DNA of 64,000 nt from contig OZ024743.1 of NCBI GenBank assembly GCA_964016885.1, forward strand, positions 83,948,001 to 84,012,000, given 5' to 3'. A model generated the notes under the pieces. That model had not been told where the DNA came from and did not search any database. It worked only from the letters and a program-made list of their open reading frames with translations. Position numbers and translations under genes: made by a program. This DNA comes from Eledone cirrhosa (Eukaryota). The number at the start of each line of letters is the position of its first letter. The stretch's first letter is position 1. Positions 28,668 to 56,210 of this stretch are shown here, in pieces.

Positions 28668-28668
<1 letters not shown>

Positions 28669-31600: not shown

Positions 31601-33185
31601 CCAGTGTACTGCGAAAAGTGAGAGCAGGATACAGGTTGGGAAAGGGAGGGCTTACCATCAATCACCTCCTCTTCATGGACGATCTTAAGCTCTTCGGGAA
31701 GAGTGAGAAGGAGTTGGATGTGCTTGTTGACACTGTCCGTATTTTCAGCAATGATATATGTATGCAATTTGGTATTAGTAAGTGTGGAGTCATTGTGATG
31801 AGGAGGGGTAAGTTGGGCAGAATTAACGGAATCCAGATACCAACAGGTGAGATGATAAAGAAAATTGACTCTGAGGAAGGATACAAGTATTTGGGTGTTC
31901 TGGAGGCTGATGACATCAAGAACAAAAAAATGAAGGAATTGATAAGATCTGAATACCTTCGGAGAGTAAGGAGCGTATTAAAGTCACATCTGAACAGTAG
32001 GAATGCCATAAGTGCAGTAAATTTCCGAGCTGTGTCTATTATTAGGTACAGTGCGGGAATTCTGAGATGGAATATTGCTGAACAAAAAGAAATGGATAGG
32101 AAGACTAGGAAGCTATTGACTATCTACAACATGTTCCACAAGAGGAGTGATGTCGATAGACTCTACTTAAGGAGATCTGAGGGTGGAAGAGGTCTTATCA
32201 GCATAGAGGACTGTGTTCAGATGGAGAAAAACAACCTACACAAATACGTGACTGATAGTAAGGAGCCAATGCTCAGAATTGTACAGAAGGAGGGGACAAT
32301 AGGCCAGGGTATTCCAAGGAGGAAATAACATCAAGGAGAAAGAGCAGCCTTCAGGAAAAATCCCTTCATAGTACCTTCTTTGAGAGAACTGAATTTAGAG
32401 ATCCACAGACATGGAACTGGTTGAAAAGAGGAGACCTTAAAAAGGCTACAGAAGGAATGTTAATGGCTGCGCAAGAGCAGGCCCTCAAAACGAAGTGGCT
32501 GAAACACCACATTTACAAGGAGGAGGCTAGCCCACTGTGCAGGATCTGTGGAGAGAGAGAGGAGACTGTGGCTCACATTGTATCCGAGTGTAAACACCTA
32601 GCCCACACTCACTATAAGGGCTGGAGACATGATGTGATGGGCAGGGTGATCCACTGGCACCTATGCAAAGTAAACAATTTACCACATTCTGAGAAGTGGT
32701 ATGAGTATAAGCCACAGGCGGTGATAGAAAACGATCAGGTGAAGGTGCTGTGGGATTTGGGGATACAAACTGACAAGAAACTGGAACACAATAGACCTGA
32801 CCTGGTGGTTTGGGACAAAGAAAAAATATCGTGCCTGATTTTGGATGTGGCCTGCCCATTCGACACGAGAGTGCAAGAGAAGGAGAGGGAGAAAATTAAC
32901 CGATACCAGGACTTAAAGTGGGAGGTAAAAAGGATTTGGAACTGCCATGAAGTCAAAGTGATCCCGATTGTCATAGGCGCACTAGGGACTATCTCAAAAA
33001 GTTTCCAGGGATGGTTAAAGAAAATTGGCCCCTTCACGCTTTTTGGAACGCTTCAAAAGGCATGTTTGCTGGGAACAGCAAGAACCCTCCGATACGTCCT
33101 GAATATCTGAGGCTGCAGGTAGTGGCTAGATATTCATTCCAACGGATTTCCAGTTAACTAACATCAATGACTGAGACTCAAAGAG
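28668..33185 (+). mobile_element. R4/Dong-like family A, copy 2 (disrupted ORF, duplicated leader module)
   Basis: ORF fragments 29689..30918, 30925..31215, 31208..31600, 31618..32328 and 32421..33110 are colinear with copy 1; (AAT)n at both ends. Confidence 0.95.
29689..33110 (+). pseudogene. Disrupted R4/Dong RT-RLE ORF (copy 2)
   Basis: Premature stop at 30918 and frameshifts near 31210, 31600 and 32320. Confidence 0.93.
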
Positions 33186-33213
33186 TAATAACAATAATAA
33201 TAATAATAATAAT

Positions 33214-33275
33214 TGTTTCTGCATTAGGCACAAGGCCAGCAATTACACAGTGCATTACTGGTACTAATAATTATT
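33214..33275 (-). mobile_element. Possible short SINE 3'-end fragment at an (AAT)n tract
   Basis: TTTCTGCATTAGGCACAAGGCCAGCAATT...ACTGGTACT is unrelated to the leaders of copies 1 and 2 and resembles my recollection of a common cephalopod SINE end; unverified. Confidence 0.3.
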
Positions 33276-33289
33276 CTATCACAGTTGTT

Positions 33290-36200
33290 GGAAAAAACAA
33301 AAACTAAGTCGGACATTCAAACATTACATTACAACGAAACTTATGCTTATTCTTTTTTGTTTTTTTTTTACCTAATTGTTTGTTTTTACCTATTTGTTTG
33401 TTTGTTTATTTATGTTCGTCTACAGCGTGATAGTGCCACACTAAAATCATCGGTGGTTATGTAACCATACATTCACCAATCCTCGATAAGAGTGTTTAAA
33501 TGTCGAACCTAAACAGTTCGAATAACGGTGAAGTGGAGACTAGAATGTCATGTGACAGACTCTCACCCAACAGGTGCTCCCTGGCTCAGCAGCAGGGACC
33601 TGGCTGTCAACCAAATACTGCTGGTGTCGGAGGAAGAAGAAAAAGGAAAGGGACCAGAACCAACTGTACGAAAGAATTGAATAGAACTGTTATGCAATGT
33701 TACCTGAAGAGTAACCCCAAGGAGAAAGGCTATAGGAAACGGATGCATAACATCTGGAACGAGATTGGTCTATTTAAATTAGATGAACAAAAATTGGCCG
33801 GGCAGGCTCGGGTAATAAGAACTAATGGGTGGATAAGCGAGCTGGAACTGGAGGAACTGAGCAGAGAGATTAGGTTGGAAATGGAGAGTGGAGTATGCCA
33901 GGCAAACGAGCCAGTGGGAAATGAAGGTGAAGAGGTTGCGAGAAAGGAGGAACCATCCGAAGCAGACAATGATCTGAATGCTGAAATAAATAATACCTGG
34001 AACAAAGATACGGCCATTGAGGAGATGAATGCTGACGGGCTAGGACAAGATTTGGTTGATATCCTAAACTTAGTGGTAGATGAATTGAACAATGATAGTG
34101 GGAAACCTATGAACCTAAGATTTGTAGACGGGAAAAAAGTTAAAAGAAACAACAGCTAAGGTAAACAAAGCCATCCCATACCTTGAGGCGAGGAGCCTTC
34201 ACCAGTGCAACAATATCCTCAAAGCAACAGCAAATGCGGTGAGGAAATTACTTGGCATAAAAGCGAGAAGAAACAACAAACAAGAAAGATCAGAACCTTG
34301 GTGGAAGAAACGACTGAATCAGGGAAATGAGAAATGACATTGGAAAGCTTGAGTTCCTACTGAATGGGACACTAAAAAACATAGACACTAAAAATAGACT
34401 GGAAATAAAGTACAAAACTAGGAGGAAAAAGCAACGCATTGTAGCAAAGAGTGCAAAAATTAGGCGATACGAGAGCAGAGTCAGTCAGTATAGACAGAAC
34501 CGCTGGTTTGACAACAACCAGAAGATGCTGTTTGGACAGCTTGAAGGGAAAGAAAGAGGCAACGACTTGATCCCTGAGGTGGGACAAACTAAGACATTCT
34601 GGAGAGGAATATGGGAGCAGGATGTTAAACATAATGACCAGGCAGTGTGGATTGAGACAGTACAAAAGGAGATTAGTGAACAGACACACCAACAAACTGA
34701 TTTGAGTATCACAGTTGAAACTCTTAAGGGGCAGGCCAAAAAACTAACCAACTGGAAATCACCAGGCCCAGATGGTGTGCAGGGGTATTGGATTAAAAAT
34801 ATAACATCCCTCCACCCGAAACTGACAACCATGTTCAATGACTGCTTGATGTCAGGTGAGGTACCAGAGTGGTTGACAAAAGGTACCACAGTTCTGGTAA
34901 TGAAAGACCGAATCAAGGGTAATGATGTTACCAACTATAGACCTATCACATGTCTGTCCGTAATGTGGAAACTGTTGACAAGCATTATGTCTGAGGAAAT
35001 CTACCATCACCTCCACACAAACAACTTGTTACCGGACGAACAGAAAGGATGCCGAAAGAAGTCCCGTGGTACAAAGGACCAGTTACTTATTGATAAGATG
35101 GTAATGAGGAATTGCAAGAGGAGACACACTGGTCTTGCCATGGGATGGATAGACTACAAAAAGGCATTTGATATGGTGCCTCATTCTTGGATCACCAAAA
35201 TCCTAGAGATCTTCAAGGTGGCAGATAACATCAGACAGTTGTTGGGCAAAAGTATGAAGTCCTGGAAAACAGAGTTAACATCAGCTGGAGAATCCTTGGG
35301 AGGCGTGAAGATCAAGAGAGGTATCTTCCAGGGAGATAGTCTGTCCCCTCTGTTGTTTGTCCTTGCCATGATGCCCCTGGCCATTATACTGCGAAAAGTG
35401 AGAGCAGGATACGAGTTGTGAAAGGGAGAGCTTACCATCAATCACCTCCTCTTCATGGACGATCTTAAGCTCTTCGGGAAGAGTGAGAAGGAGTTGGATG
35501 TGCTTGTTGACACTGTCCGTATTTTCAGCAATGATATATGTATGCAATTTGGTATTAGTAAGTGTGGAGTCCTAGTGATGAAGAGGGGTAAATTGAGCAG
35601 AAGCAACGGAATCCAGGTACCAACAGGTGAGATGATAAAGGAAATTGACACTGAAGAAGGATACAAGTATTTGGGTGTTCTGGAGGCTGATGACATCAAG
35701 AACAAAAGAATGAAGGAATTGATAAGATCTGAAAACATTCGGAGAATAAGGAGCGTATTAAAGTCACATCTGAACAGTAGGAATGCCATAAGTGCAGTAA
35801 ATTCCCGAGCTGTGTCTATTATTAGGTATAGTGCGGGAATTCTGAGATGGAATATTGCTGAACAAAAAGAAATGGATAGGAAGACTAGGAAACTATTGAC
35901 TATCTACAACATGTTCCAAAAGAGGAGTGATGTCGATAGATTCTACTTAAAAAGATCTGAAGGTGGAAGAGGTCTTATCAGCATAGAGGACTGTGTTCAG
36001 ATGGAGAAAAACAACCTATACAAATACGTGACTGATAGTAAGGAGCCAATGCTCAGAATTGTACTGAAGGTCATGTCCAAGGAGGAAATAACAAGGAGAA
36101 AGAGCAGCCTTCATGAAAAATCCCTTCATAGTACCTTCTTTGAGAAAACTGAATTCAGAGATCCACAGACATGGAACTGGTTGAAAAGAGGAGACCTTAA

Positions 36201-36943
36201 AAGACTACAGAAGGAATGTTAATGGCTGCCCAAGAGCAGGCCCTCAAAACGAAGTGGTTGAAACACCATATTTACAAGGAGGAGGCTAGCCCACTGTGCA
36301 GGATCTGTGGAGAGAGAGAGGAGACTGTGGCTCACATTGTATCCGAGTGTAAACACCTAGCCCACACTCACTATAAGGGCTGGAGACATGATGTGATGGG
36401 CAGGGTGATCCACTGACACCGATGCAAAGTAAACAATTTACCATATTCTGAGAAGTGGTATGAGCACAAGCCAGAGTCGGTGATAGAAATCGATCAGGTG
36501 AAGGTGCTGTGGGATTTTAGGATACAGATGGACAAAAAACTGGAACACAATAGACCTGACCTGGTGGTTTTGGACAAAGAAAAAAGAGCGTGCCTGATTG
36601 TGGATGTGGCCTGCCCATTCGACACGAGAGTGCAAGAGAAGGAGAGGGAGAAAATTAACCGATACCAGGACTTAAAGTGGGAGGTAAAAAGGATTTGGAA
36701 CTGCCATGAAGTCAAAGTGTTCCCGATTGTCATAGGCGCACTAGGGACTATCTCAAAAAGTTTCCAGGGATGGTTAAAGAAAATTGGCCCCTTCACGCTT
36801 TTTGGAACGCTTCAAAAGGCATGCTTGCTGGGAACAACAAGAACCCTCCGATACGTCCTGAATATCTGAGGCTGCAGGTAGTGGCTTGATATTAATTCCA
36901 ACGGATTTCCAGTTAACTAACATCAATGACTGAGACTCAAAGA
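33290..36943 (+). mobile_element. R4/Dong-like family A, copy 3 (disrupted ORF, short leader)
   Basis: ORF fragments 33500..34159, 34327..35421, 35455..36222, 36216..36416 and 36480..36869 are colinear with copy 1; same 3'UTR; (AAT)n at 36946-36974. Confidence 0.95.
33500..36869 (+). pseudogene. Disrupted R4/Dong RT-RLE ORF (copy 3)
   Basis: Frameshifts, small deletions and stops at 35421 and 36416. Confidence 0.93.
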
Positions 36944-37219
36944 ACAATAATAATAATAATAATAATAATAATAAAGTTTTCTTTATTAACCACAAGGGTT
37001 TACATAAAGTAGACATTAAGGACAGTACAGGACAATACAGGACGGTACAAATGGGCATTTCTGCGTGTAAAAAAAACAGAGGTTGAAATAAAATAACAAA
37101 GAAAAATTCCCCAATAGGGGGGAGACTTCCGAGGGACATTTGTGGAGAAAGCCCATTAAAAGACCACAGTGGCCCTGACCACCAGGGCAAGTGCCCTCTC
37201 CCAGTTTTCCACCTTTAAT

Positions 37220-40200
37220 TTACAGACACATGCTCAGAGAAGGCCCATTCATTCGGGCCATACTTGCTTCTCTCACCCATCTTTCAACAAAATGCTGGGA
37301 AGAGAGCACTTCCCTCTCTACCCTGATTTTCCTTTTCAAATGAAATTTGAAAAAGTTAATCAGGGCATCACCGAAGAGGTAAGTGCTCGTCTTCAGCCCT
37401 TTCAAACGTGTCCACCATACTATCTCTTTCGCCATGGCCACCAGACAGATAAAAACTGCCTGCCCTTCCCGGCTAAAGGAAGGGGGCGGGGCAATCCTCA
37501 CGATGGACTCAGCTGATAGCTGGATCCGTCCTACACGTGACAGCAGGTGTTCGACATAAACCCACAAGTCAGCAATGCTCGGACACTGGACGAGTGCGTG
37601 CAGGACGGTTTCGTCGCCCTGCGCGCATCTCGGACATGCCCGGCTGACGGCACCTCCATGCCTGTAGAGTTTATCCCGAACTGGCAAAGCTCCTCGGTAG
37701 CACTGCCAGGCCAGAGATTTCTGGAAGTTGTCCATAGGCCCCGGCCCGAAAGTCCTTCCGAAGAGATTGGCTAGTTGATTTTCGTCGACGCCTAGAGTTT
37801 CTCCAAGTACGTCGTCGCTCTTCCCCTCCACTAATCCCCTATAGAACGCCAAGGTGGAGTTTCCACCGATCACATTGCCCGATTGGTCGAGGGCTGTGAG
37901 CGCCTGAAGACATTCCAGTCTCCAAGCGCTCCCTCTCGGTCTTCGCTTGACCCAGGACTGCAGCTCCGTCAAGGAGACGAGCTGGGGAAAAACGTGTCTA
38001 GCAAACGGCGACCACACCTGATCACCGTCGAGGAAGAGGTGGAGATGTCGTAGCCTGAGCGCGTGTCTGCGCATCATCAGCCACGGCATGCCCAGCCCTC
38101 CACGTAGCGGGTGTTGACAGCAGATGGACCGCCTGAACATCGGAGCGCGTCCCTTCCACAAGAAGCGAAAGAGCAAACGCTCCAGCGCAGTCAGGCGGGG
38201 CTTAGGACAAGGTACGACGGTCAGGCAGTAGTAGATGACGGATGCGATGTACGCATTCGCCACCTCCGCTCGACCTTTCAGGGATAGCTTCCTCTCGGCC
38301 CATTTCTGGGTGAGAGAAGCCACCCTGCTCGTCACCTCGTCCCAGTTTTTGTCCGTCTGGAGGTCTGGACCGAACCAGACCCCTAGCAATTTAATCGGTC
38401 CGTCTGTCCAACGCCCGACGACGCTGTTGGACGGCATGGACCTGCCTCTCCAGGTGCCGAGCTGCAGGCCCACTGACTTTTCCTGGTTGATCATTGCTCC
38501 TGTCACCGCTTCGTATTCTCTTAGTGTAGTGCCGATCGCCTCGATGTGTTTGGCGTTCGACACCACTACGATGACATCGTCGGCATATGCTGACACGGAT
38601 CTTCCGCATCCTAGTTCGCGCGGGACCCCCCTCAACGTCTCCAGTTTGTGCAGTAATGGCTCGAGAGTCAATACATACAATAGGGACGAGAGGGGACATC
38701 CTTGGCGGACCGAGCGCATGATGTTGAACGGTTCCGAAAGGTGACCGTTCACTCTCACTACAGAGCAGATGTCGCTGTGCATGGCAGCGATCCAGCCTCT
38801 GAAGACGGGCCCAAAGCCAGCCGCCCTCAGGACTGCCGCTAGGTAACGATGGTCGACCCTATCGAAGGCTTTCGACTGATCTAAATTGATCAAAGACCCA
38901 CCCGTGCCAGGTTCCCTAGCTACCCTCTCTACGATGTATCGCATGAGGTGGAGGTTGTCGTGGATGGATCTGTCGGGAATGGCGCATGTCTGTGCCTCTC
39001 CCACCAGACCACCAACGACAAGCGCCAACCTCTTTGCTAGCACCTTGGCCAAAATCTTGAACTCTGTGTTTAGCAGAGTTATGGGCCTAAAATTATCTAT
39101 GTTATCCCCCTTGTTCGGATCCTTTCTCAGCAACGCCACCGCTCCTCGGCTCACAGAGCTGGGAATTCTCCCGTTCTGTTGCCAGTTGCAGTAGACGTCC
39201 GCCAAGAGGCCTCCGAACAAGTTTGGCATTTGTACGTAAAGTTCATAGGGCAGACCATCCAAACCAGGCGATTTACCCCTTGTGCAACTAGTCATTGCAT
39301 CCCGTACTTCAGCGGTTGTTATCGGCTTTTCGCAACACTTCGCCTCAGTGGCCGAAAGCCGCGGCAGTCCGTCGAGGTAGACACTAAAGTCCATCCCTCG
39401 ATCCGGCCCGCCACTGCCCCCGAACAGTTGAGCGAAGTGTCGCTGAAAAGCTTCACACATTTGCCCGGGATCGAGTAGCATGCGCCCGTCGTGGTCCACC
39501 AAAGACCGGATCGTGGCTTTGTTGCCACGACGCGCCTCCGCCACTCGGGCCCATTGAACGGCTTTCGTCCCCTCGTGTCTGAGAGCACGCACCCTAGCTC
39601 TGACAACGCAGCCTTCGTGCTTTGCATTGAAGAATTGGTCAAGGGCCAATTTCGCCGCAAGTACGTCGGTCGCGATGCCTTTGCTAAGCGCCTCATCTAA
39701 TTTTCTAACTAATTTTCCCTCTGATCTATTTTTCTCTATTGCTAAAGTCTTACTAAACCTAATGGACTCTATTCTAATTGCTCTTTTCAGAGCAAACCAC
39801 CACTTGTTGTTGACGATGGCCCCCGTCAACGCCCGCTTAACTAGCTCGCTAATCCGGTCTCTGTAGGCCTTGCGCGCTGGTAAGGACGCGTTTAGCTTCC
39901 AGTAGCCGGGTCCTCGTCTATGAAGCCTATCTAAGTCAAGCACACAGATCACGAATTTGTGGTCCGTGTAGCTGACTATCTTGAATTGTGGACAGCCTAT
40001 GCTAGACCTATTTATTTCCCTACAAAATACTCTATCTAGATATGATCTGGATGACCCTATGCGATTTGTCCAAGTCCACATTGGTACATTCGGGAAATCC
40101 ATTCGGTACCTGTCAGACAGTTCAAAACGTCTGAGCAGGTTGGTGAGACTCTTGCACCCTCCTTCCCTATCCACTAATCCCACACAATCCCAGCGTGCAT

Positions 40201-40639
40201 CTAAGATCCCGTTCCAGTCGCCCACTAACACTAAAGAGCGGGACGTTCCAAGAAAGGTCTCCAGACGCCGGAAGAAATCAGGCCGCCCTGCTCCTGTCGG
40301 GGCATAGACGGCCACTAACCTGAAAGCTTGCCCGTCACCGCTGGTCACGTCCAGCACCACCAACTTACCTTCTGGGTCCAGGAAGATGGCCCGTATGGCA
40401 AGATCCAAACCTCTCCGAAAAAGCACAGCAACTCCTCCCCCCGATCCCGGACGGCTGGGAGATGCGTACACATCGTAGCCGCCGAAGATCGGTGCGAAAG
40501 CCTGTGCTTCGGAGATTCTGGTCTCGCTGATGGCCACTACATCTATGTTTAGTGACCTGAGGTCATTGAGCAGGTGGCCCTGCTTCCATGACGACCCCAA
40601 GCCACGCGCATTTATGCTGCCTATTCTGAGTGAGGTCAT
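37220..40639 (-). CDS. Tx1-like ORF2, 1139 aa: APE endonuclease, reverse transcriptase, CCHC knuckle; intact
   Basis: SINARG, SET, VYAP, GDWN, YLDRV, TDH, GPGYWKLN; KSPGLDG, NFRPITLLN, LDQSKAFD, QGCPLS, YADD; CPRCAQGDETVLHALVQC. Confidence 0.95.
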   Translation of the reverse strand: MTSLRIGSINARGLGSSWKQGHLLNDLRSLNIDVVAISETRISEAQAFAPIFGGYDVYASPSRPGSGGGVAVLFRRGLDLAIRAIFLDPEGKLVVLDVTSGDGQAFRLVAVYAPTGAGRPDFFRRLETFLGTSRSLVLVGDWNGILDARWDCVGLVDREGGCKSLTNLLRRFELSDRYRMDFPNVPMWTWTNRIGSSRSYLDRVFCREINRSSIGCPQFKIVSYTDHKFVICVLDLDRLHRRGPGYWKLNASLPARKAYRDRISELVKRALTGAIVNNKWWFALKRAIRIESIRFSKTLAIEKNRSEGKLVRKLDEALSKGIATDVLAAKLALDQFFNAKHEGCVVRARVRALRHEGTKAVQWARVAEARRGNKATIRSLVDHDGRMLLDPGQMCEAFQRHFAQLFGGSGGPDRGMDFSVYLDGLPRLSATEAKCCEKPITTAEVRDAMTSCTRGKSPGLDGLPYELYVQMPNLFGGLLADVYCNWQQNGRIPSSVSRGAVALLRKDPNKGDNIDNFRPITLLNTEFKILAKVLAKRLALVVGGLVGEAQTCAIPDRSIHDNLHLMRYIVERVAREPGTGGSLINLDQSKAFDRVDHRYLAAVLRAAGFGPVFRGWIAAMHSDICSVVRVNGHLSEPFNIMRSVRQGCPLSSLLYVLTLEPLLHKLETLRGVPRELGCGRSVSAYADDVIVVVSNAKHIEAIGTTLREYEAVTGAMINQEKSVGLQLGTWRGRSMPSNSVVGRWTDGPIKLLGVWFGPDLQTDKNWDEVTSRVASLTQKWAERKLSLKGRAEVANAYIASVIYYCLTVVPCPKPRLTALERLLFRFLWKGRAPMFRRSICCQHPLRGGLGMPWLMMRRHALRLRHLHLFLDGDQVWSPFARHVFPQLVSLTELQSWVKRRPRGSAWRLECLQALTALDQSGNVIGGNSTLAFYRGLVEGKSDDVLGETLGVDENQLANLFGRTFGPGPMDNFQKSLAWQCYRGALPVRDKLYRHGGAVSRACPRCAQGDETVLHALVQCPSIADLWVYVEHLLSRVGRIQLSAESIVRIAPPPSFSREGQAVFICLVAMAKEIVWWTRLKGLKTSTYLFGDALINFFKFHLKRKIRVEREVLSSQHFVERWVREASMARMNGPSLSMCL

Positions 40640-40673
40640 GTTGAAAAGGAGTGGAAAAGATGGGAAAGACCAC

Positions 40674-42661
40674 TTACCTTACTTCTTGTAGGGGAAGGAC
40701 GGTTTTTCCATCCTTTTCACAGCTTGTGGCCTCCTCAGGAAGGATGTCCTTATAAATCCTCCTGGAGAGTGCTTGTCGGAAGTCTCCGATGTCTTTGGGG
40801 AATTTTTGTTTTAGTGTCATGTACGTTTTCTGTGTGATGCGAGTGATTTGTAAGTGTGGAGGTGGTGTGAATTTTGGGGTTGTTGTGTAGTCTTTTTCTG
40901 TGATGCTGGTGTTGTGTTGGATGTAGTGTAATAATTGCTTGTTGTTCAAATTTAATGCTGTGTAGTGTGTATCGTTTTGGTTGTTTTGTTTTGTTTGCGT
41001 TTGTTGTGGGTTTGTTTCTGTTTCGCATTTTGGTGACTTTTGTGGTGTAGGTGATGGTGGTGCTGGGGTTAATGATGGTGATGGTGTTGGTGTTTGGGTT
41101 GATGGGGTTGGTGATGCTGGTGTGGATGGTGGCATATCTGTCCTAACTTTTTTGTTTCTTAATTTATTTGTTTCCCTCTGTATTTTGTTTTTGGAGGAGG
41201 AAGGAAGAGAATTTTTTCTTTTTTGGTTTCTTTTTTTTTTCCGGATATCGTTTCCCACTCCTCGTCGTCACAATCTGTCTCCAGTTGTGATAGGCCGGGG
41301 AGTGGAAAATCCTCCACAGCCGTTAGTTTTGGTTGTGGTGTGGTGGATGGTGTAGGCGCTGGTGCTAGTTCTGAAGCGTTGGGTGGTGGTGGTGTTGGTT
41401 TTGCTGGTGGTGGTAGTGGTGTTGGTTTTGCTACTGTTGCTGGGGTTGTTGCTGTTATAGTTGCTTCTGTTGTTGCTGCTACAGTTGTTGCTGCCATCTC
41501 TGCTACTGGTGGTGTTGATCGTTGTGTCACTGGGGTGGGTAGGAGAGGTGGCCTCAACCTTTTAGCCTGAGGGCAGAAAGCCCTTAGGTGGTTTCCTTCA
41601 CCACAAACGACACACCTAGGTCTTCTGCCCTCGACAATTACCGTGAGGTGGCTGCCGTCAGTGAGGTCTATTACCTCTGGGATCTCCTCAATGCTCTTTT
41701 GGTCCGCTTGGATCAGGAGCTCCATCCCAGATCCGGACCAGTTTTCCTGCTTTTCTTTTGCTATTGCTATTATTTTCGTGTTGGCTTCGATGCCGGCGAG
41801 GACGGCCGCTATTAGCCAGGGAATTTCGATGGCCGGTGGAACGTGGGTCACCCTGATCTTTACGAGTCTCTGGCCACAATAGCTTGGGACGAGTGTGAAG
41901 TCGTCACTTTTTAATGGGGCCATGGAGTGTTCTCTAGCCTCCTCTGGTGTTTCAAAGAACACGTCCACGGTTCCATACTTTTGCCCACGTCTGATGTGGG
42001 TTTTTCTTGCCCACACATGTCCCAAAGCTTTTTGGATTTGGGACTCGGATGCCCGTTCCACTCGGCGCGATTTTACATTTATTGTTCTATACGACACGGT
42101 GCATAGGCGCCGATGCTCCATTTTATTAGGTGGGGGGGTGAGGCTGACCCTGTACCCATCTTTCTTTACCATTTGTTTGGCATTTTCTAAATCTTCCTGT
42201 GTTACCGTAAATGCTTCGAATTGTTTTGCTACTCTGGCGAAACTGAGGGGGGGGGGGGTTATAATGTCATTGTTGTTGTTGTTGCTATCGTTAATATTAA
42301 TTTTAGTTTCAGTTGTGGTGGTGGTGACGTCAGTCGTCTTTGGTGGGGAAGAGTCCATTTTGCTTGATTTCATTTCGACATCACGAGTTAATTTATTTTT
42401 TTCTTCTTTTGTTCTGTTGTCGCGGTGGTGGTGGTGGTGGTGGTTGTCGCGGTGGTGGTGGTGGTGGAGGCTTTAACACCTGCAGTCATTGGTAATGGCG
42501 GGAAATGAATGTCTGCCTGAGACAAATTTAAAATATTGCTACTGCTTATATTTTTTTTTTGTGTTGGCAAACGTAGTAACATTTACAATGGTGGTGTCGG
42601 TGTGAGGTGTTATTTTGTGAGGAAGGCTTTCAGCTGCTTCGTGCAGAGGTGAAGTAGCCAT
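40674..42661 (-). CDS. Tx1-like ORF1 (RNA-binding, CX2CX4HX4C knuckle, P/T-rich), broken only at A-homopolymers
   Basis: Segments 42388..42582, 41159..42373 (CVVCGEGNHLRAFC) and 40674..41258; likely start AAAAAAAATGGCT at 42661; frame changes coincide with T-runs near 42555, 42398 and 41235. Confidence 0.75.
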
Positions 42662-42894
42662 TTTTTTTTCAAAGAAATTTTTTGATAATAACAGAAGTTA
42701 AAATTTTGGGTACAAGGCCCCAATCTTTTTGGGTGTCCTTTTCGGAAAACAATGTATGTGTGCTTATAAACAGTTAACAATAACATTTTCCATAAATGGC
42801 AATTTTTAACAAACGGAAATAACAAACCTTTGCGGAGCTCACGATGATACGATTTACTACGTAGGTCGCCAATAATAATAATAATATTAATAAT

Positions 42895-42953
<59 letters not shown>

Positions 42954-43206
42954 TTTCTTTATTAACCACAAGGGTTTACATAAAGTAGACATTAAGGACA
43001 GTGCAGGACAATACAGTACGGTACAAATGGGCATTTCTGCGTGTAAAAAAACAAAAAAAAACAGAGGGTGTAACAAAAAATAACAATGAAAAATTCCCCA
43101 ATAGGGGGGAGACTTCGGAGGGACATTTGTGGAGAAAGCCCAATAAAAAGCCACAATGACCCTGACCACCAAGGCAAGTGCCCTCTCCCAGTTTTCCACC
43201 TTTAAT

Positions 43207-46200
43207 TTACAGATATATACTCAGAGTAGGCCCATTCACTCGGGCCATTCTTGCTTCTCTCACCCATCTTTCAACAAAATGCTGGGAAGAGAGCACTTCC
43301 CTCTCTACTCTCATTTTCCTTTTCAAATGAAATTTGAAAAAGTCAATCAGAGCATCACCGAAGAGGTAAATGCTCGTCTTCAGCCCTTTCAAACGTGTCC
43401 ACTATACTATCTCTTTCGCCATGGCCACCAGACAGATAAAAACTGCCTGCCCTTCCCGGCTAAAGGAGGAGGGCGGGGCAATCCTCACGATGGACTCAGA
43501 TGATAGCCGGATCCGTCCTAAACGCGACAGCAGGTGTTCGACATAAACCCGCAAGTCAGTAATTTTTGGACACTGGACGAGTGCGTGCAGGACGGTTTCG
43601 TCGCCCTGCGCGCATCTCGGACATGCCCGGCTGACGGCACCTCCATGCCTGTAGAGTTTATCCCGAACTGGCAAGGCTCCTCGGTAGCACTGCCAGGCCA
43701 GAGATTTCTGGAAGTTGTCCATAGGCCCTGGCCCGAAAGTTCTTCCGAAGAGATTGGCTAGTTGATTTTCGTCGACGCCTAGAGTTTCCCCAAGTACGTC
43801 GTCGCTCTTCCCCTCCACTAATCCTCTATAGAACGCCGAGGTGGAGTTTCCACCGATCACATTGCCCGATTGGTCGAGGGCTGTGAGCGCCTGAAGACAT
43901 TCCAGTCTCCAGGCGCTCCCTCTCGGTCTTCGCTTGACCCAGGACTGCAGCTCCGTCAAGGAAACGAGCTGGGGAAATACGTGTCTAGCAAACGGCGACC
44001 ACACCTGATCACCGTCGAGGAAGAGGTGGAGATGTCGTATCCTGAGCGCGTGCCTGCGCATCATCAGCTACGGCATGCCCAGCCCTCCACGTAGCGGGTG
44101 TTGACAACAGATGGACCGCCTGACCATCGGAGCGCGTCCCTTCCACAAAAAGAGAAAGAGCAAACGCTCCAGCGCAGTCAGGCGGAGCTTAGGACAAGGT
44201 ACGACGGTCAGGCAGTAGTAGATGACGGATGCGATGTACGCATTCGCCACCTCCGCTCGACCTTTCAGGGATAGCTTCCTCTCCGCCCATTTCTGGGTGA
44301 GAGAAGCCACCCTGCACGTCACCTCGTTCCAGTTTTTGTCCGTCTGGAGGTCCGGACCGAACCAGACCCCTAGCAATTTAACCGGTCCGTCCGTCCAGCG
44401 TCCGACGACGCTGTTGGACGGCATGGACCTGCCTCTCCAGGTGCCGAGCTGCAGGCCCACTGACTTTTCCTGGTTGATCATTGCTCCTGTCACCGCTTCG
44501 TATTCTCTTAATGTAGTGCCGATCGCCTCGATGTGTTTGGCTTTCGACACCACTACGATGACATTGTCCGCATATGCTGACACGGATCTTCCGCATCCTA
44601 GTTCGCGCGGGACTCCCCTCAACGTCTCCAGTTTGTGCAGTAATGGCTCGAGAGTCAATACGTACAAGAGGGACGAGAGGGGACATCCTTGGCGGACCGA
44701 GCGCATGATGTTGAACGGTTCCGACAGGTGACCGTTCACTCTCACCACAGAGCAGATGTCGCTGTGTATGGCAGCGATCCAGCCTCTGAAGACGGGCCCA
44801 AAGCCAGCCGCCCTCAGGACTGCCGCTAGGTAACGATGGTCGACCCTATCGAAAGCTTTCGACTTATCTAAATTGATCAAGGACCCACCCGTGCCAGGTT
44901 CCTTAGCTACCCTCTCTATGATGTATCGCATGAGGTGGAGGTTGTCGTGGATGGATCTGTCGGGAATGGCGCATGTCTGCGCCTCTCCCACCAGACTACC
45001 AACGACAAGCGCCAACCTCTTTGCTAGCACCTTGGCCAAAATCTTGAACTCTGTGTTTAGCAGAGTTATGGGCCGGAAATTATCTATGTTATCTCCCTTG
45101 TTCGGATCCTTTCTCAGCAGTGCCACCGCTCCTCGGCTCACAGAACTGGGAATTCTCCCGTTCTGTTGCCAGTTGCAGTAGACGTCCGCCAAGAGGCCTC
45201 CGAACAAGTCTGGCATCTGTACGTAAAGTTCATAGGGCAGACCATCCAAACCAGGCGATTTACCCCTTGTGCAGCCAGTCATTGCCTCCCTTACTTCAGC
45301 GGCTGTTATCGGCTTTTCGCAACACTTCGCCTCAGTGGCCGAGAGCCGCGGCAGTCCGTCGAGGTAGACACTAAAGTCCATCCCTCTACCCGGCCCACCG
45401 CTGCCGCCGAACAGCTGAGCGAAGTGTCGCTGAAAAGCTTCACACATTTGCCCGGGATCGAGTAGCATGCGCTCGTCGTGGTCCACCAAAGACCGGATCC
45501 TGGCTTTGTTGCCACGACGCCGCTCCGCCACTCGGGCCCATTGAACGGCTTCGTCCCCTCGTGTCTGAGAGCACGCACCCTTGCTCTGACAACGCAGCCT
45601 TCTTGCTTTGCATTGAAGAATTGGTCAAGGGCCAATTTCGCCGCAAGCACGTCGGTCGCAATGCCTTTGCTAAGCGCCTCGTCTAATTTTCTAACTAGTT
45701 CTCCCTCTGCTCTATTTTTCTCTATTGCTAAAGCCTTACTAAACCTAATCGATTCTATTCTAATCGCTCTTTTCAGAGCAAACCACCACTTGTTGTTGAC
45801 GATGGCCTCCGTCAACGCCCGCTTAACTAGTTCGCTAATCCGGTCTCTGTAGGCCTTGCGCGCTGGTAAGGACGCGTTTAGCTTCCAGTAGCCGGGTCCT
45901 CGTCTATGAAGCCTATCTAAGTCAAGCACACAGATCACGAATTTGTGGTCCGTGTAGCTGACTATCTTGAATGAATTGTGGACAGCCTATGCTAGACCTA
46001 TTTATTTCCCTACAAAATACTCTATCTAGATATGATCTGGATGACCCTATGCGATTTGTCCAAGTCCACATTGGTACATTCGGGAAATCCATTCGGTACC
46101 TGTCAGACAGTTCAAAACGTCTGAGCAGGTTGGTGAGACTCTTGCACCCTCCTTCCCTATCCACTAATCCCACACAATCCCAGCGTGCATCTAAGATCCC

Positions 46201-46629
46201 GTTCCAGTCGCCCACTAACACTAAAGAGCGGGACGTTCCAAGAAAGGTCTCCAGACGCCGGAAGAAATCAGGCCGCCCTGCTCCTGTCGGGGCATAGACG
46301 GCCACTAGCCTGAAAGCTTGCTCGTCTCCGCTGGTCACGTCCAGCACCACCAGCTTACCCTCTGGGTCCAGGAAGATGGCCCGTATGGCGAGATCCAAAC
46401 CTCTCCGAAAAAGCACAGCAACTCCTCCCCCCGATCCAGGACGGCTGGGAGATGCGTACACATCGTAGCCGCCGAAGATCGGTGCGAAGGCCCGTGCTTC
46501 GGAGATTCTGGTCTCGCTGAAGGCCACTACATCTATGTTTAGTGACCTGAGGTCGTTGAGCAGGTGACCCTGCTTCCATGACGACCCCAAGCCACGCGCA
46601 TTTATGCTGCCTATTCTGAGTGAGGTCAT
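43207..46629 (-). pseudogene. Disrupted Tx1-like ORF2 (copy 2)
   Basis: 4-bp TGAA duplication near 45970, frameshift near 45550, TGG-to-TAG stops at 44068 and 43402; catalytic YADD mutated to YADN. Confidence 0.93.
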
Positions 46630-46664
46630 GTTTAAAATAGAGTGGAAAAGATGGGAAAGACCAC

Positions 46665-48765
46665 TTACCGTACTTTTGGTAGAGGAGGGATGGTTTTTAC
46701 ATCCCTTTTCACTTGATCGTCTGGTGAAGGGACCGTTGAATCGTCCCTTCGGCTGGTTGTCGGCTCTTCTAAGAGAATGTCTGAATATACTCTTCGATTG
46801 ATAGTTCCTCCTAGATCCCTGAAATCACCAACTGCGTTGGGGAATTTCGTTTTAATGTTTGTGTATTGTTTCTGTGCTATTTTTAGCAGTCTTATGTTAG
46901 TTGGCGTTTTGATTGGTGCTGGTATTATGTAGTCGTGTTGTGAAATGTCTGTGTGTTCAATTATGTAATTCATTAGTTTCTTGTTGTGTGTATTTATTGC
47001 CGTGCATTTGTTTTTCTGGGGGTGGGGTGTGGTTCTGCTATTTTCTTGTCGTTGTTGCTGGGTGTGTGTGTTTTGTTGTTGTGTTTGCGATGTTGGTGCT
47101 TGTGGTGGTGGTGTTGAAGGTGTTGTTGGCGGTGGGGTTGTCGCCGGTGGTGATGGTGGTGCTAGTGTGGGTGGTGATGGTGTTGGTGGTGTTGCTGCTG
47201 TGGGTCTCTTTGCAGTAGACTTTACCCTTTTCTCATTTCTTTCCTCCCTTTTCAAAGGCGACGATGCGCTGCTTCTGCGTTTGTGCCTTCTTACGACCTT
47301 TTGCCATCCCTCTCCCACCTCACACTCCATGTCTGATTCTGTGAGGTCGGGGAAGGGTACCAGCTCCACTCTTTCACTTGTTGTTGTTGGTGATGTTTGC
47401 ACTGGAGTCTCTGTTGCAGCTGCATTTGGTATTGCTGTTGTTGTTGTTAATATTTCCACTGCTGCTGCTGTTTTTGATTTCCGTGGCGTGGGTATGGGTG
47501 CCACGGACCTATCGTTCCTGGTTGCCGCTTGTCCTGTTGCTGGTAGCCGTGGAGCCGGTTTCGGAAGGAGGGGGGGTTCTCCTTTCTCAGGGTCTTCTCG
47601 TTGCAGAAGGCCCTGAGGTGAGTCTTCGATCCACAGCGAAAGCATTTCGGGCGTTTTCCCTCAACACTTATGGGCAGTTGAGTGCCGTTATCGAAGTCTA
47701 TCACATACGGGATAGCTTCGATGCACTCCTGGTTGGTTTGGATTAGCATCTCAATGGAGGTGCCGACCCAATCTTCTCTTACTTTGTTCTGTACTTGCAG
47801 TACAGTTGTTTTGTCCTCGATTCCGACGAGGACAGACGCGGCCAGCCAAGAAGGGGCCATTCCGGGGGGGACGTGGGTCAGTTTGACCCTCACAATTTTT
47901 GCCCGCAGTAGGAGGGCACCAACACCATTTCCTCGCTCCTTAGGGTCACTACGGATTGGGCCTTTGCCTCCTGGGGTGTGGCAAAAAGTACGTCTACGGT
48001 GGCATATTTTTTGCCTCGGGTGATGTGCGTTTTCCGCTGCCACACAGACCCCAAGGCTTTTTGTATTTGAGCCTCTGTGGCTCTTTCCACCCTACGGGAT
48101 TTTGTACTTACTGTACGGTACGTGACCGTACAGTGCTGTTGGGTTTCGAAAAATTTTTCCGCTGCCTTGCAGATTGCTCGGTGTCCGTTCTTTGTCACCA
48201 TCTTCTTCGCTTCCTCTAATTCCTCATTTGTTATGAGGATTGTTTCCAAGTTTTTCGCAATACCTGCAAATGAGATTGGTTTTTCTTTGCTGCTGTTGTT
48301 GTTGTTGTCGTCAGAGCTGCTGTTACTTTTGTTGTTGCTGCAGGTACTACGACTACTGCCTCCGCCGCTGTTGCTGTGGTTGTTGTTGGTGTTGCTGCTG
48401 CTAATGCTGTTGTTGTTTATGCTGCTGGTGATGCTGTTGCGGCTGCTACTGTTGTTTTCATTGTCACTGTTGCTGTTGTTATTACGGCTGCTACTGCTAT
48501 TATTCCTGACGTCAGACGAATGAACTGGGTTTTCGTATTTCCCGCACACCTGTTTCGTCGCTGTCGTCGTCGTCGTGGAGAAACCTTGCACGCTTTGCAC
48601 GAGACTTTTCTTTTCTTTCGTCACTTGCGAAAGAGAAGGGAGGGAGAGAGACACATTTAAAGAAGGGAGGGAGAGAGACAATCTTCTCTCTGCTGTAGTG
48701 ACGATTGAGGAAGAAGAAGACGGAATGAGTGGGAGTGACCTATGCAAATTCTTTTTCGTAGCCAT
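46665..48765 (-). pseudogene. Tx1-like ORF1 of a different type (copy 2), frameshifted at homopolymers
   Basis: Segments 47890..48765, 47447..48043 (CFRCGSKTHLRAFC) and 46665..47645; homologous to but strongly diverged from copy 1 ORF1. Confidence 0.82.
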
Positions 48766-48983
48766 GTTGTTTTTTTTTTGTTTAAAATAAATATTGGGTA
48801 CAAAACCCCAATAAGCAGTTATTTAACCCCGAAGGGCCAAATAACGGTCAGAAAGACCCCTCTCACGAGGAGGAGGGTGTTTTTGTCTACAAGTTGGTCC
48901 AAGTTTTAAACAATTTACAATTGTTATAGCGTTCAAAATTTACAGTACCTTACAGAGCCGAGCCTCCGTCAACCATAGCATTC

Positions 48984-49050
<67 letters not shown>

Positions 49051-49052
<2 letters not shown>

Positions 49053-50226
49053 TGGATTATCTACATATTGGATTATCTACATATCTACAATTGGATTATC
49101 TACATATCTAAGGGAATCACATGATTGGATGATCAAACTCGTTTTGAAACACGAAAGCATCAAAAGATCATATTCCATTACAAAAGATGCACAAAGATAC
49201 AGTAATGGACTACAAATTTCAGAAGTCCCATTTACTGCTGAAATGGAAAACACAGAAAAAGCAAAGCAGGTAAAAGTAACTGCAAAGAAAGAACTGCTAC
49301 AGAAACTGGCTAAGAAATGGCAAGAAAAGCCTCTGTATGGAAAATACCCAGAGCGAGCTAACAATCCTGATGTTGACAAAACTTTAACCCATCAGTGGTT
49401 GGCATCCTCTGGACTGAAATCGGAGACTGAAGGACTGATTATATCGGCACAAGATCAGTGTCTGCCAACAAAAAATTACCAAGCCAACATAATAAAAAAT
49501 GGGTACAGCCCATTATGCCGAGTATGCAAAAAACAACCAGAGACCATTGACCATATAATTTCAATGTGCAGTCCTATAGCTCCAACCGAATACCTAAACA
49601 GGCATGACAGAGCTGCACAATACATACATTGGATAATGTGTAAGCATTTTGACCTGCCCCATCAAAAGAATTGGTGGGAGCATCAACCACCTCCCATACT
49701 TGAAAAAGATCACATCTCAATCTTGTGGAACTTTAGCATCCAAACAGACCGAAAAATAGATGCAAACAGACCTGATATAATATTGAAAGACTTTCAAAAG
49801 ATGGTATGCCTGCTAATTGATATGTCTGTTCCAATAGACAAGAATGTATCTATAAAAACATTTGAAAAATTGAGCAAGTATAAGGACCTGGAGATAGAAA
49901 TTGGAAAAATGTGGAAATTGAGAACTAAAACAATACCAGTGGTTGTAGGCGCTCTGGGAATGATACCTAAGGGGTCTAATGATTACTTATCGCAAATCCC
50001 AGGAAACCCGCGTATAGGAGAAATACAAAAGATAGTACTAATGGGAACTGCCCATATACTAAGGAAGATTCTGTCAATATAAGTACATCACAAGTCTAAA
50101 CACTAAAGATGCATGTGTGAATATGTATGTTCTTTCTTGAACATGGCGGACCTTGTTGTCTCTTGAGGTCACTGGTTGTGACTTGGTGATAACTCGTATG
50201 AACATAAAGCAAGATAAATGCAACTG
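49051..50226 (+). mobile_element. R4/Dong-like family B, 5'-truncated fragment (knuckle + RLE + 3'UTR)
   Basis: ORF 49129..50082: AQDQCL, CRVCKKQPETIDHIISMC, RHD, RPDII...DMSVP...KLSKY, GALG; (AAT)n on both sides. Confidence 0.92.
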
Positions 50227-50467
50227 TAATAATAATAATAATAAATAAATAAAAAATAAAAATAAATAAATATATATATATATATACACACACATACATA
50301 TATATATATACACATATATATACACACACACATATACATTAATAACAATAATAATAATAATAATAACAACAACAATAATAATAACGACAACAACAACAAT
50401 AATAATATACATATACATATATACACACACACGCACACAAATAAACATATCTATATACACACACACG

Positions 50468-53158
50468 ATACCAACTAACAGCGCTGCGATCAAATGTGGC
50501 TTTTTAGCCCAGCCAATGATCTAAAATGTCTTGCACAGAGTCGGCAACCAAAACATTCACTGAGAATAGCCGGCTGTGGTTGGAGTTCATGTACTTTTGC
50601 ATGTCGCTTGAGCCCTCCTGCTGATTTACATTCTCTACCACATGCTTGGCAAGCATGATGTGTAGCATCTCCAACAGCAGCCTGGTAGTCAACCACTGGT
50701 CTTACTTTATGACTGCGAAGATGACTTTCGAGTCCAGCTTTGCTTAGGCAGAGTCTCGCACAGATGCTGCATGTCAGCACCATAGGAGGACCCTTGCCGT
50801 CTGGAAGTGCAACAGCAATTCCCCTCCTCACATCCCGCTTTACTTTCTCGTATGCGATTCGAGATGCCTCAAAGGCAACTTTTCCCTCATATACAGTCTT
50901 TCTCCATTTATTACGATCAGCAGCAATATTTTCCCATATATCAGCAGAGATGTTAGCATCTTTCAAAGAGGCTTTCAAGGAATCCTTATACCTCTTTTGG
51001 GGTTTATGTGGCGGTCGTTTTCCTTTAACCAACTCTCCATAAGAGTTGTTTTGGTATTCTAGAATCCTTCATCCTGGCAAGGTGACCACTCCAACGGAGT
51101 CGTTGCACAAGAGCTTCTATACTGTCACACATAGAGCTTTCCAAAATCTCGACATCACTGATGTGGTCCCTCCAATGAACGCCATGGATCCGTCTGAGAC
51201 ACATCTGATGGAAACGCTCCAATTGCTTAAGGTGGTGTCGATATGTGACCCAGGTCTCGCAGGCATAAAGAAGACAAGAGAGCACACATGCCTTGTACAC
51301 CTTTACCTTTGTCCTCCTGCATATGTCTCGCCGACCCCAGAGTCGCCTTTCTAGCTTTCCGAAAGCATCACTTGCTTTCCTAATCCTAAGTGAGATTTCA
51401 CTGTCAAGGTTGCTGTATCGATTGACAGTGCTTCCCAGGTAGACAAACTGATCAACCACTCCAAGTCGTTTACCATACACATAGATATTTCGTTCAGTGT
51501 ACTGCTTACCAGGAGCAGGTTGGTACATGATGACGGTTTTCTTGAGACTGACAGTCAATCCTAGGGCAGTGCAAGCGTCAGAAAATGCATTCAAAATGTG
51601 CTGCATATCACTCTCTGTGTGCGCTACAAGATCACAATCATCTGCATACAAGAGGTCTCTTATGATTGATTTAAATACTTTTGTCTTTGCAGCAAAGCGC
51701 CTGATGTTAAATATGCTGCCTGAGGTTCGATATTGGATGTAAACACCATGCTCGCAATTCCTGAATGCAATACAGAAAACCATTGCAAAGTATATGGCAA
51801 ACAGGGTCGGTGCTGGAATATCCCCCTGTTTCACTCCCTTTTTTACTGAGATAGGCTCCGACATGTTACCTCCGACATTAACCCAAGCCTTCATGTCGTC
51901 ATGGAAAGACCTAACTAAAGCAAGGAACTTATCAGGGCAACCAAGTTTCTGGAGAACCTTCCATAATGCATCTCTGTTAACAGTATCGAAAGCTTTTGTC
52001 AGATCGACAAAAATCTGATACAGATCCAAGCCTTGTTCCATGCACTTCTCCTGGAGCTGTGTAGCTGAGAAGATCATATCAGTAGTGCCGCGTCCAGCAC
52101 GAAAACCAGATTGACTTTCAGGAAGAACACAATCTGCAATGTGTGTCAGCGGACGGTCCAGAAGCACCCTACATAAAACTTTCCCTACGACAGACAGCAA
52201 TGATATACCTCTGTAGTTCCCACAATCATTCCTGTTACCCTTTCCCTTGTACAAGACCACCATTACTGCATCTCTCCAGTCCTCAGGTACGGATTCATTA
52301 GCCCATATCCTGCCAAACAAAGAATGAAGATGTTGCAGGAGGCTCTCACCACCATATTGTAGGAGCTCAGCATGTATGCCATCCATACCTGGAGATCTTC
52401 CACTGTTCAGCTTCGAAATAGCCACTGCAACCTCCACAAGCGTCGGAGATTCTGCGAGAGCTACTTTCACAGGACTTTCCGGAATGAGATTGAGGAAATC
52501 TTCACTGACGACAGACGGCTGATTCAAAAGATCATCAAAGTGCTCTCGCCACCTTCGTAGAATTCCCTGTGAGTCACGAAGAAGTTCTTTGCCATCCTTG
52601 CTGCGAATCGGTGTCACCAGAGAAGAAGACGGTCCATAAACGTCACGCAAGAGACTGTACAACAGCTTTATGTTATTGGAATCTGACGCAGTTTGTATCT
52701 CACCAGCCTTCTCACTCCACCACTGATCCTTCATCTGAGAAAGACTCCGCCTAACACGTGATTTTACATCCTTGAGTTCCTAATGCAACGTATTCCTCTC
52801 CTGTGGTTTTGCCGTCAAGTAGCGTGACAGAGTACGCCCCTTATCAGCCAACAAGTCCTCTATATGTACATCATTCTCATTAAACCAGTCCTACATCATA
52901 AACCGACTTTTTAAGAGTTGGCCAATCCTCACCAAGATCTGCAGCCTGCATCTCTTCTTCCAATGTCCTTTTCACATTTTTATCCTTAAGACGAGCATCA
53001 TTCAATCTTTTGGGCAGGGCAACACCAGGAGCCCGGATTTTACGTTTAGTGATTAGTTTCACTTTTGCGCGTACCAGGCGGTGGTCCGTCCAGCACTCAG
53101 CTCCACGAAGAGCACGAACACACTGCACATCCTGTCTGTCACGCATCCTGACTAGGAA
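50468..53158 (-). mobile_element. 5'-truncated RTE-clade (BovB-like) LINE with C-terminal C2H2 zinc fingers
   Basis: 52880..53188 (RGAECWTDHRLV, APE end); 51025..52734 (NYRGISLLS, QSGFR, FVDLTKAFD, QGDI, YADD, FVYLGS, LYACETW); 50490..51032 (zinc fingers). Confidence 0.92.
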
Positions 53159-53159
53159 T

Positions 53160-56100: not shown

Positions 56101-56210
56101 CAAAACATTCTTGCGATTCAAGGGATGACAATTTCTTTTCTTTTACAACCTTGCCACCAGGAAGGTGGCCGGTCAAAAAAAATATACTCGAAATTAAGAG
56201 AAAGAGATAA
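53160..56210 (+). mobile_element. R4/Dong-like family C, 5'-truncated and decayed, with (TACA)n tail
   Basis: EPAW, NYRPIACQN, LDYQKAFD, QGDSLSVLLF, FVDD, YRYLG, AIQEQ, CRLCKTKIEDVSHIVASC, RHD, RPDIV...EISCP; stop at 56128; (TACA)n follows. Confidence 0.9.

Follow-up and report, generated by a model that had tools for sequence, protein, structure and literature searches.

Two adjacent long interspersed nuclear elements (LINEs), designated A and B, lie on the minus strand of a 64,000-nucleotide stretch of the Eledone cirrhosa contig OZ024743.1 (the window, to whose positions all coordinates refer; A and B are read on the minus strand unless stated), and they carry a nearly identical second open reading frame (ORF2) under first open reading frames (ORF1) and 5′ untranslated regions (5′UTRs) that diverged long ago. 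BLASTN aligned 36940-40720 with 42916-46712 at 95.8% identity over 3798 columns, bearing out an earlier note on this DNA, according to which ORF2, the inter-ORF spacer and the 3′UTR are almost the same in both copies. In blocks of 100 columns, identity stays at 0.86-1.00 between 40667/46658 and the 3′ end and lies at about 0.4-0.7 over ORF1 and the 5′UTR, with an abrupt step. Codon counts of ORF2 gave a proportion of synonymous differences (pS) of 0.076 (bootstrap 0.057-0.095) and of nonsynonymous differences (pN) of 0.019 over 1135 codons, with 36 of 549 four-fold sites differing. The three alignable blocks of ORF1 gave pS 0.74 (0.68-0.83) and pN 0.30 over 299 codons, with 46 of 60 four-fold sites differing, so that synonymous sites are saturated; the ORF1 cores are homologous and about half identical (50% at the amino acid level in these blocks), as had been estimated by eye. 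Therefore, ORF1 is old and under purifying selection, not fast-evolving. Sliding-window and synonymous comparisons, proposed in the earlier note as a check, thus revealed roughly tenfold unequal divergence of ORF1 and ORF2, and the pairing of this ORF2 with two ORF1 types extends beyond A and B.

Divergence and phylogeny conflict across the breakpoint, as is characteristic of recombinant families (pS 0.74 vs 0.076, and the tree tests in a distant relative, G001, described below), and recombination at the family level very probably underlies the A/B mosaic. The explanation that ORF1 and the 5′UTR simply evolve faster through positive selection or relaxed constraint, with no recombination, can practically be dismissed. 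ORF1 is generally the less conserved (41% ORF2 vs about 25% ORF1-core identity to the relative), but four-fold sites are saturated in ORF1 and not in ORF2, ORF1 pN is far below pS, the step is abrupt and the trees conflict in the relative. The fuller reading, in which an ORF2 module is shared by two old cassettes of 5′UTR and ORF1 via DNA-level exchange within arrays, is held with slightly better than even confidence. The parts of the two elements are as follows.

36975..42870, minus strand: element A, full-length L1-group (Tx1-like) LINE
42662..42870, minus strand: 5′UTR of A, putative internal promoter, with a 19-nt motif at 42706-42724
40674..42661, minus strand: ORF1 type A, frameshifted in this copy; order: low-complexity N-terminus, core of tandem RRM (RNA-recognition motif) and CCHC (41567-42250), linker, C-terminal domain
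40677..40720, minus strand: counterpart in A of segment B2 (below), with a 7-bp hairpin (40715-40695)
40670..40683, minus strand: 14-nt motif AGTAAGGTAAGTGG across the ORF1 stop, consensus 5′ splice site with GT at 40677 (46668 in B)
40640..40673 (A) and 46630-46664 (B), minus strand: inter-ORF spacer
37220..40639, minus strand: ORF2 of A, intact, 1139 aa, with APE endonuclease, reverse transcriptase (RT) and zf-RVT
36975..37219, minus strand: 3′UTR of A, with pyrimidine tract and CAG (acceptor-like, last G 37061) and AATAAA at 36987
36946..36974: (AAT)n run at the 3′ end of A, doubling as the tail of a plus-strand element with RT and restriction-enzyme-like endonuclease (RT/REL)
42871..42951: (AAT)n run separating the 3′ end of B from the 5′ end of A
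42952..48983, minus strand: element B, full-length but decayed L1-group LINE copy
48766..48983, minus strand: 5′UTR of B, its 19-nt motif (48794-48812) agreeing with that of A in 17/19 letters
46665..48765, minus strand: ORF1 type B, with frameshifts near 47895 and 47570, 50% aa identity to type A in alignable blocks
46713..46754, minus strand: B1, 42 additional nt in B, an old paralogue of the motif that ends ORF1, keeping the register of the upstream ORF1 alignment
46668..46712, minus strand: B2, A-like final 15 codons of ORF1-B, where the shared module begins, with a 7-bp hairpin (46706-46686)
43207..46629, minus strand: ORF2 of B, broken by a 4-nt duplication near 45968, a 1-nt loss near 45550 and TAG at 44070 and 43404
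45832..46307, minus strand: 476-nt tract without substitution against A 39846-40317
42952..43206, minus strand: 3′UTR of B, with an acceptor-like site ending at 43037 and AATAAA at 42963
48984..49052: (AAT)23 run at the 5′ end of B

Classification and limits of the shared module

A and B belong to the L1 group of non-LTR (long terminal repeat) retrotransposons. ORF2 of A contains the Pfam domains Exo_endo_phos, RVT_1 and zf-RVT, all over cut-off, and its closest solved structure is human L1 ORF2p (E 2.6e-52; R2 only 2e-21). A separate upstream ORF1 has predicted RNA-binding domains: the AlphaFold model of its core (pLDDT 94) matches tandem-RRM proteins (E about 1e-4, TM 0.28-0.38), zf-CCHC is present in 9 of the 46 aligned members, and an ESM match points to ZCCHC3-like RNA-binding domains (0.91). 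LTRs are absent, and AATAAA (36987, 42963) is followed by an (ATT)n tail in both elements. Named Tx1 references were absent among the hits, and “Tx1-like” is a provisional label. A Pfam match of both cores to MBD (E 0.003-0.012, under cut-off) was rejected because the model shows RRM folds. A hidden Markov model search with the ORF1 core gave 509 matches, so the blank of a word-indexed search with the ORF1-A core (0 among 1012 candidates) is uninformative; no relative turned up when metagenome and viral contigs were scanned with single proteins. Four predicted proteins (P0084, P0106, P0124 and P0163) fuse an ORF1-core segment to unrelated host-like domains; these fusions are likely gene-prediction artefacts, and the donor-like ORF1 end discussed below could promote exon capture.

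The two elements are arranged head to tail with (ATT)n runs bounding each, as serial insertions without nesting. As (ATT)n is present on both flanks of A and B, the tail is indistinguishable from a target-site duplication, and target specificity is visible at this one locus only. ORF1 is frameshifted in both copies, and ORF2 is intact only in A; that of B has two frameshifts and two TAG stops, and its YADD reads YADN. Of the 5′ features that the earlier note had considered shared, the 19-nt 5′UTR motif stands at the positions given there with 17 of 19 letters equal (17 was reached in 0 of 300 shuffles), and it marks the two cassettes as distant homologues, whereas the poly-A-ATGGC start is not diagnostic, being found also at 24284 (plus strand) before an unrelated element. 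The 19-nt motif is absent upstream of ORF1 at the five G001 loci tested.

The break in similarity, placed by the earlier note at the ORF1 stop, is indeed near it, but lies about 45 nt upstream (40720/46712), and 37 of the next 44 positions match, with one gap. When the last 45 nt of ORF1-A were compared with B, 33 of 45 positions agreed at offset 0 and 23 of 45 at offset 42 (background mean 12.7, sd 3.1); offset 42 is the best of all other registers and is in register with the upstream ORF1 alignment. B thus ends with two paralogous terminal motifs, the old copy (B1) followed by the A-like copy (B2), and the simplest reading is that B would be a chimera joined out of register by 42 nt. The shared module begins with the 7-bp hairpin, which shows one compensatory and one consistent change between the two sequences. 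Three further candidates at this end were rejected. The 7 mismatches in the terminal 44 nt (p 0.047 when set against the synonymous rate) do not establish an older age for this end, and a long hairpin pairing the end of ORF1 with the spacer lacks significance (z -1.67, -1.54 and +0.53). A TURBS-like reinitiation element (termination upstream ribosome-binding site; PMC10275272) was also weighed, but the UGGGA core of such elements is missing from the hairpin loops.

Occurrence beyond the pair and recurrence in a distant relative

Part of the stretch is carried by 20 sequencing runs of 17 organism labels and 16 studies (share below 0.2 in 7 of the 20), and the contigs of four of them (X1, X4, X5 and X8) were compared; none of the 20 is an RNA run, and they have no bearing on expression. 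Both ORF1 types occur in the contigs of all four runs, three of which stand under labels other than that of the best-matching run, and in X4, X5 and X8, which stand for three further labels, both types are found at 97-99% identity. The boundary is crossed in X5 by an A-type ORF1 contig (40649-41136, 7 letters differing, depth 33.7) and by a B-type one (46640-48153, 17 letters differing, depth 44.1); the two stop at homologous positions, after 30 nt exactly common to A and B, as expected if two paths merge in a k=31 graph; the ORF2 contigs of this run have depths of 74.5-82.4. A single 2370-nt contig of X8 (44920-47292, 33 other letters) runs from ORF2 across the junction of B, and an A-type contig of X4 reaches 40682, 38 nt into the shared end. 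Other contigs read through the frameshifts of B, which are therefore decay of this copy. The recombinant has amplified as a family, not as a single copy, and the 97-99% identity across four labels would point to close relatives or to horizontal transfer, together with unequal amplification. Type A has a summed depth, which is not a copy number, about a thousandfold below that of type B in X4 and similar to it in X1. A pairing of ORF1-B with a different ORF2 was not found among the matches listed.

These contigs bear on the possibility that the mosaic is limited to A and B, with ORF2 copied by local conversion or by assembly collapse. A and B share a 476-nt identical tract, which exceeds the maximum (370) of 2000 simulations, and, among the 11 ORF2 variant positions listed, nine are private to B and two are common to A and B against nearly all contigs. 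The tract is likely a later conversion between A and B, or polishing cross-talk, and together with the two shared letters it suggests that some later A-B exchange (or such cross-talk) overlies the family-level mosaic. As a full account, local copying is highly improbable and largely refuted: both junction types occur in runs under other organism labels, A departs from B at 138 of 3744 aligned positions, B carries stops and frameshifts of its own, and the G001 family repeats the pattern.

G001 is a metagenome-assembled genome labelled Arenicella, which supplied 41 of the 43 loci in an ORF2-alignment scan of genome contigs. Its elements are two-ORF units in head-to-tail arrays; their ORF2 is 41% identical to that of A, and their ORF1 core is homologous (about 25% identity between the families). 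Many of the contigs (loci L038-L075 and L078-L082) are pure arrays of intact Tx1-like LINEs with a period of 6.4-6.8 kb and no intervening microsatellite. The arrays, reminiscent of telomeric retrotransposon arrays, are probably host eukaryote DNA in a bacterium-labelled bin.

Over 56 unit observations, in which overlapping loci cause some units to be counted twice, the ORF1 cores fall into 12 types, the C-terminal domains into 12 and the ORF2 starts into 8, in 16 combinations. The contrast between the ORFs recurs in the pairs c8/c6 (ORF1-core pS 0.74, ORF2 pS 0.008), c5/c9 (0.77 and 0.003) and c13/c16b (0.45 and 0.000). Separate ORF1 and ORF2 trees, another check proposed in the earlier note, conflict in this family (p-AU <0.001). 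In approximately unbiased (AU) tests on 11 chosen units, with pairs picked after identities were seen, the sister pairs seen in ORF2 are rejected on the ORF1 data (p-AU 0.00036 and 2e-5), as is the ORF1 pair c8+c9 on the ORF2 data (3e-6). Identity is about 0.7 at a point 200 nt upstream of the ORF1 stop and reaches 0.9-1.0 in the final ~80 nt, with the register kept. Of 28 adjacent array pairs, 3 differ in ORF1 (0.66-0.69) and are identical over the first 400 nt from the donor-like motif (1.00). In L049 (3198-8506), adjacent units are 5308 nt apart (others about 6400-6850) at an ORF1-type switch, and the short unit may be truncated or deleted at the type boundary.

Since both types occur in other contigs and G001 shows many independent swaps, the single recent recombination proposed in the earlier note is not supported as one event, while its central idea, one ORF2 under two old cassettes, stands. 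Swapping appears recurrent and lineage-wide, across two distant lineages. The suggestion that tandem arrangement favours swaps finds partial support in the 3 of 28 adjacent G001 pairs and the 476-nt tract, except that A and B are serial copies, not nested ones.

Origin of the junction

On the favoured reading, A and B would be two subfamilies of one L1-group (Tx1-like) LINE with one common ORF2 module, composed of the last ~45 nt of ORF1, the spacer, ORF2 and the 3′UTR, under long-diverged cassettes of 5′UTR and ORF1. Neighbouring full-length copies in target-site arrays would recombine repeatedly, and the recombinants would then retrotranspose; B would represent the original chimera, in which a donor ORF1 was joined 42 nt out of register to an A-type ORF1 end. 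The exchange would be driven by homology and concentrated in ORF2 and the conserved ORF1 end, and the ORF1 cores, diverged by about 50%, would stay apart because exchange needs homology. Array exchange would in this way homogenise ORF2 across old ORF1 cassettes. Crossovers may fall just before the ORF1 stop because nucleotide signals there, the donor-like motif and the small hairpin, would have to travel with ORF2. The likeliest basis for the persistence of the cassettes would be their different promoters, through an expression niche or promoter-specific repressors. As for the possible escape from silencing raised in the earlier note, at most promoter-specific repression would be escaped, because the ~63% of the element that is shared would remain a small-RNA target.

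Several points weigh against this reading. The data fail to separate DNA-level exchange from template switching, and DNA-level recombination is reported to have been discounted for rodent L1 (Sookdeo et al. 2013, PMC3600994). An out-of-register join is unlike the product of simple homologous exchange, outgroup ORF1 tails (P0075, P0079 and P0081) are too variable to tell which copy is the chimera, and some G001 exchanges fall between the ORF1 core and the C-terminal domain, so that the boundary is not tied to the stop. The contig evidence comes from 4 of the 20 runs, X1 being possibly the source sample itself; among the contigs listed, none joins A-type ORF1 to ORF2 coding sequence, and the A-type contig of X8 ends at 40722, short of ORF2. 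Summed contig depths are not copy numbers, and the ORF1 types per ORF2 in the source organism are known from the two copies of the window, not genome-wide. The hairpin is weak evidence, with one compensatory pair in two sequences, such a hairpin in 5 of 131 tiles of A, and no covariation in 14 G001 rows.

Alternatively, the mosaic may have formed at the time of retrotransposition, if RT copied an A-type RNA through ORF2 and then jumped to the RNA of another family near the ORF1 end, with a 2-nt AG overlap. The join is out of register, and at 40721 the A-type contigs elsewhere differ from A by a letter that is nearly fixed in X1, X4 and X5 and that yields the AG overlap at the join; template switching is also one of three routes proposed for 5′-half swaps among co-active mouse L1 families (PMC3600994). 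Template switching alone leaves unexplained the internal 476-nt identical tract and the in-register patchwork among adjacent G001 units, and this origin is considered a serious but distinctly less probable one.

A third route is suggested by the motif at the ORF1 stop. A and the G001 family (locus L048) have AGTAAGGTAAGTGG in identical form across the stop, and no other exact match between them outside conserved ORF2 coding motifs is as long. Because the stop codon is a different TAA in each lineage and the motif is kept in different reading frames, the constraint acts on nucleotides. The motif contains a consensus 5′ splice site, and all 64 G001 ORF1 ends found keep the donor-like motif. Both lineages also have a pyrimidine tract and YAG in the 3′UTR, and G001 has a second donor right after the ORF2 stop. 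In L048 (8471-8760) and in the 3′UTRs of L039, L055, L059 and L070, a second donor-like motif is followed by a pyrimidine tract and TAG about 240 nt on, a possible 3′UTR intron retained in genomic copies. Counting against donor function, an equally good donor occurs by chance within ORF2 at 40368, T-rich UTRs mimic acceptors, and the L070/L082 subfamily and five more distant elements have no donor at the ORF1 end. No spliced half-copy or ORF1-only copy was found among the 64 G001 ends, nor an ORF1-only copy of the window family among the matches listed (15 of 2882 rows).

If this donor is used, a tandem read-through RNA may have been spliced from the ORF1-stop donor of the upstream element to a cryptic acceptor lying 45 nt upstream of the ORF1 stop of the next element and then retrotransposed, giving the junction of B. 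In keeping with this, the motif is conserved across 41% ORF2 identity in different frames and in 64 of 64 G001 ends, B1 ends in AAG at most 1 nt from the position homologous to the donor, the A-type contigs would give CAG at the join, and splice-made L1 chimeras are known (PMC13174262). Splicing as the source of the junction is nevertheless judged improbable: the acceptor is poor, with several AGs separating the pyrimidine run from CAG; crossovers in G001 keep the register and fall upstream of the donor; splicing is not a general route; and none of the 64 G001 ends is spliced, a chance donor exists at 40368 and the L070/L082 subfamily lacks the donor. A broader scheme, a little less improbable, would combine a single shared ORF2 with a long-kept allelic pool of promoter and ORF1; the donor would make ORF2 an optional intron (ORF1-only mRNA), and splicing, having made the junction of B, would shuffle exons between LINE families. 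If the conserved donor is used, a LINE would thereby set its ratio of ORF1p to ORF2p in a manner not reported before.

Surroundings and comparison with known systems

The window is rich in microsatellites and eukaryotic in character. At 23742-36974 and 49053-50244 (plus strand) lie three near-full-length single-ORF RT/REL elements, 90-96% alike and presumably R4/Dong-like, with one 3′ fragment and one 5′-truncated member of another family; an (AAT)n run ends every one of them. A and B share their microsatellite array in opposite orientation. The ORFs of the first two copies are 90-96% alike and their 5′ regions (24150-24790 vs 28669-29366) only about 0.46-0.71, so that 5′ replacement possibly occurs in this family too; the second copy has a 300-nt internal duplication (28665-28964/29117-29392). 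A third Tx1-like ORF2 (17876-21380, minus strand), 5′-truncated, decayed and 70% identical to A and B, ends in (ATCT)n, not (ATT)n, and has a 32-nt internal duplication at 20854-20920. A 21-nt minisatellite of 322 copies (1-6696, plus strand) has almost no G on the plus strand and, by eye, a higher-order repeat of about 3.87 kb, and an inverted duplication of ~295 nt (91%) at 8040-8812 adjoins (AT)n runs. Mobile-element remnants recognised by eye at 12390-15260 (-), 50490-53160 (-), 53170-56200 (+), 59900-62800 and 63160-64000 comprise two APE/RT LINEs, a further RT/REL element with an (ATAC)n end, a hAT-like DNA transposon and an RT fragment.

The RT or the 3′ end serves to name, count and date LINE families, and here one ORF2 hides several ancient types of promoter and ORF1. 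RT-based libraries would merge such types, and consensus building would blend them. Natural pairs with an identical ORF2 and a saturated ORF1 would make it possible to isolate the effect of ORF1 and promoter on tissue, timing, repression and copy number, and the contrast between X4 and X1, which is one of depth and not of copy number, hints that types succeed unequally in different hosts.

Recently active Dong-R4 and L1-Tx1 families are reported from Octopus vulgaris (PMC13282606), and target-specific Tx1-clade LINEs (PMC4640811) resemble A and B as APE-type L1-group elements in a microsatellite, here beside R4/Dong-like elements. HAL1 (ORF1-only L1 derivatives; PMC5753468) and SpIREs (PMC5860796) correspond to the product expected if ORF2 were spliced out from the ORF1-stop donor to the 3′UTR acceptor; in contrast to these, no ORF1-only copy was seen here, within the scope given above. 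A literature search, outside which lay Repbase, most subscription papers and supplements, found no report of Tx1 families with one ORF2 under different ORF1s and none of a splice donor at a LINE ORF1 stop; the accessible parts of PMC6581046 and PMC5381506 hold no matching case.

Mammalian L1 5′UTRs turn over by recombination, for which escape from KRAB-zinc-finger repression has been invoked (PMC5753468, PMC13174262); there, ORF1 stays relatively conserved with ORF2, whereas in A and B the whole ORF1 moves with the promoter. The mouse families L1MdTf and L1MdGf carry the 5′UTR and ORF1 of one lineage on the ORF2 of another, a combination that arose several times independently (PMC3600994), and they are alike in the recruitment of an older 5′ part by a young 3′ end. 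In the mouse, the breaks fall within the 5′ portion of ORF2 and join families a few million years apart, whereas the A/B break precedes the ORF1 stop. Unlike the mouse cassettes, those of A and B are saturated at synonymous sites (50% aa identity) and coexist across several labels, and the relative has 12 core types. Reticulate evolution of ORF1, with shifts of the ORF1 module between ORF2 lineages, has been described for CR1/L2/Jockey LINEs (Metcalfe and Casane 2014, PMC4120745), whose type I ORF1, with RRM upstream of CCHC, is also that of A and B; those are deep transfers between clades, whereas the exchange considered here is ongoing among ORF2s that are 94-100% identical. Recombination of L1 is thus already known, and what sets the present elements apart is a deep ORF1 split on near-identical ORF2s, with many coexisting cassettes, in two distant lineages and with a conserved motif at the stop.

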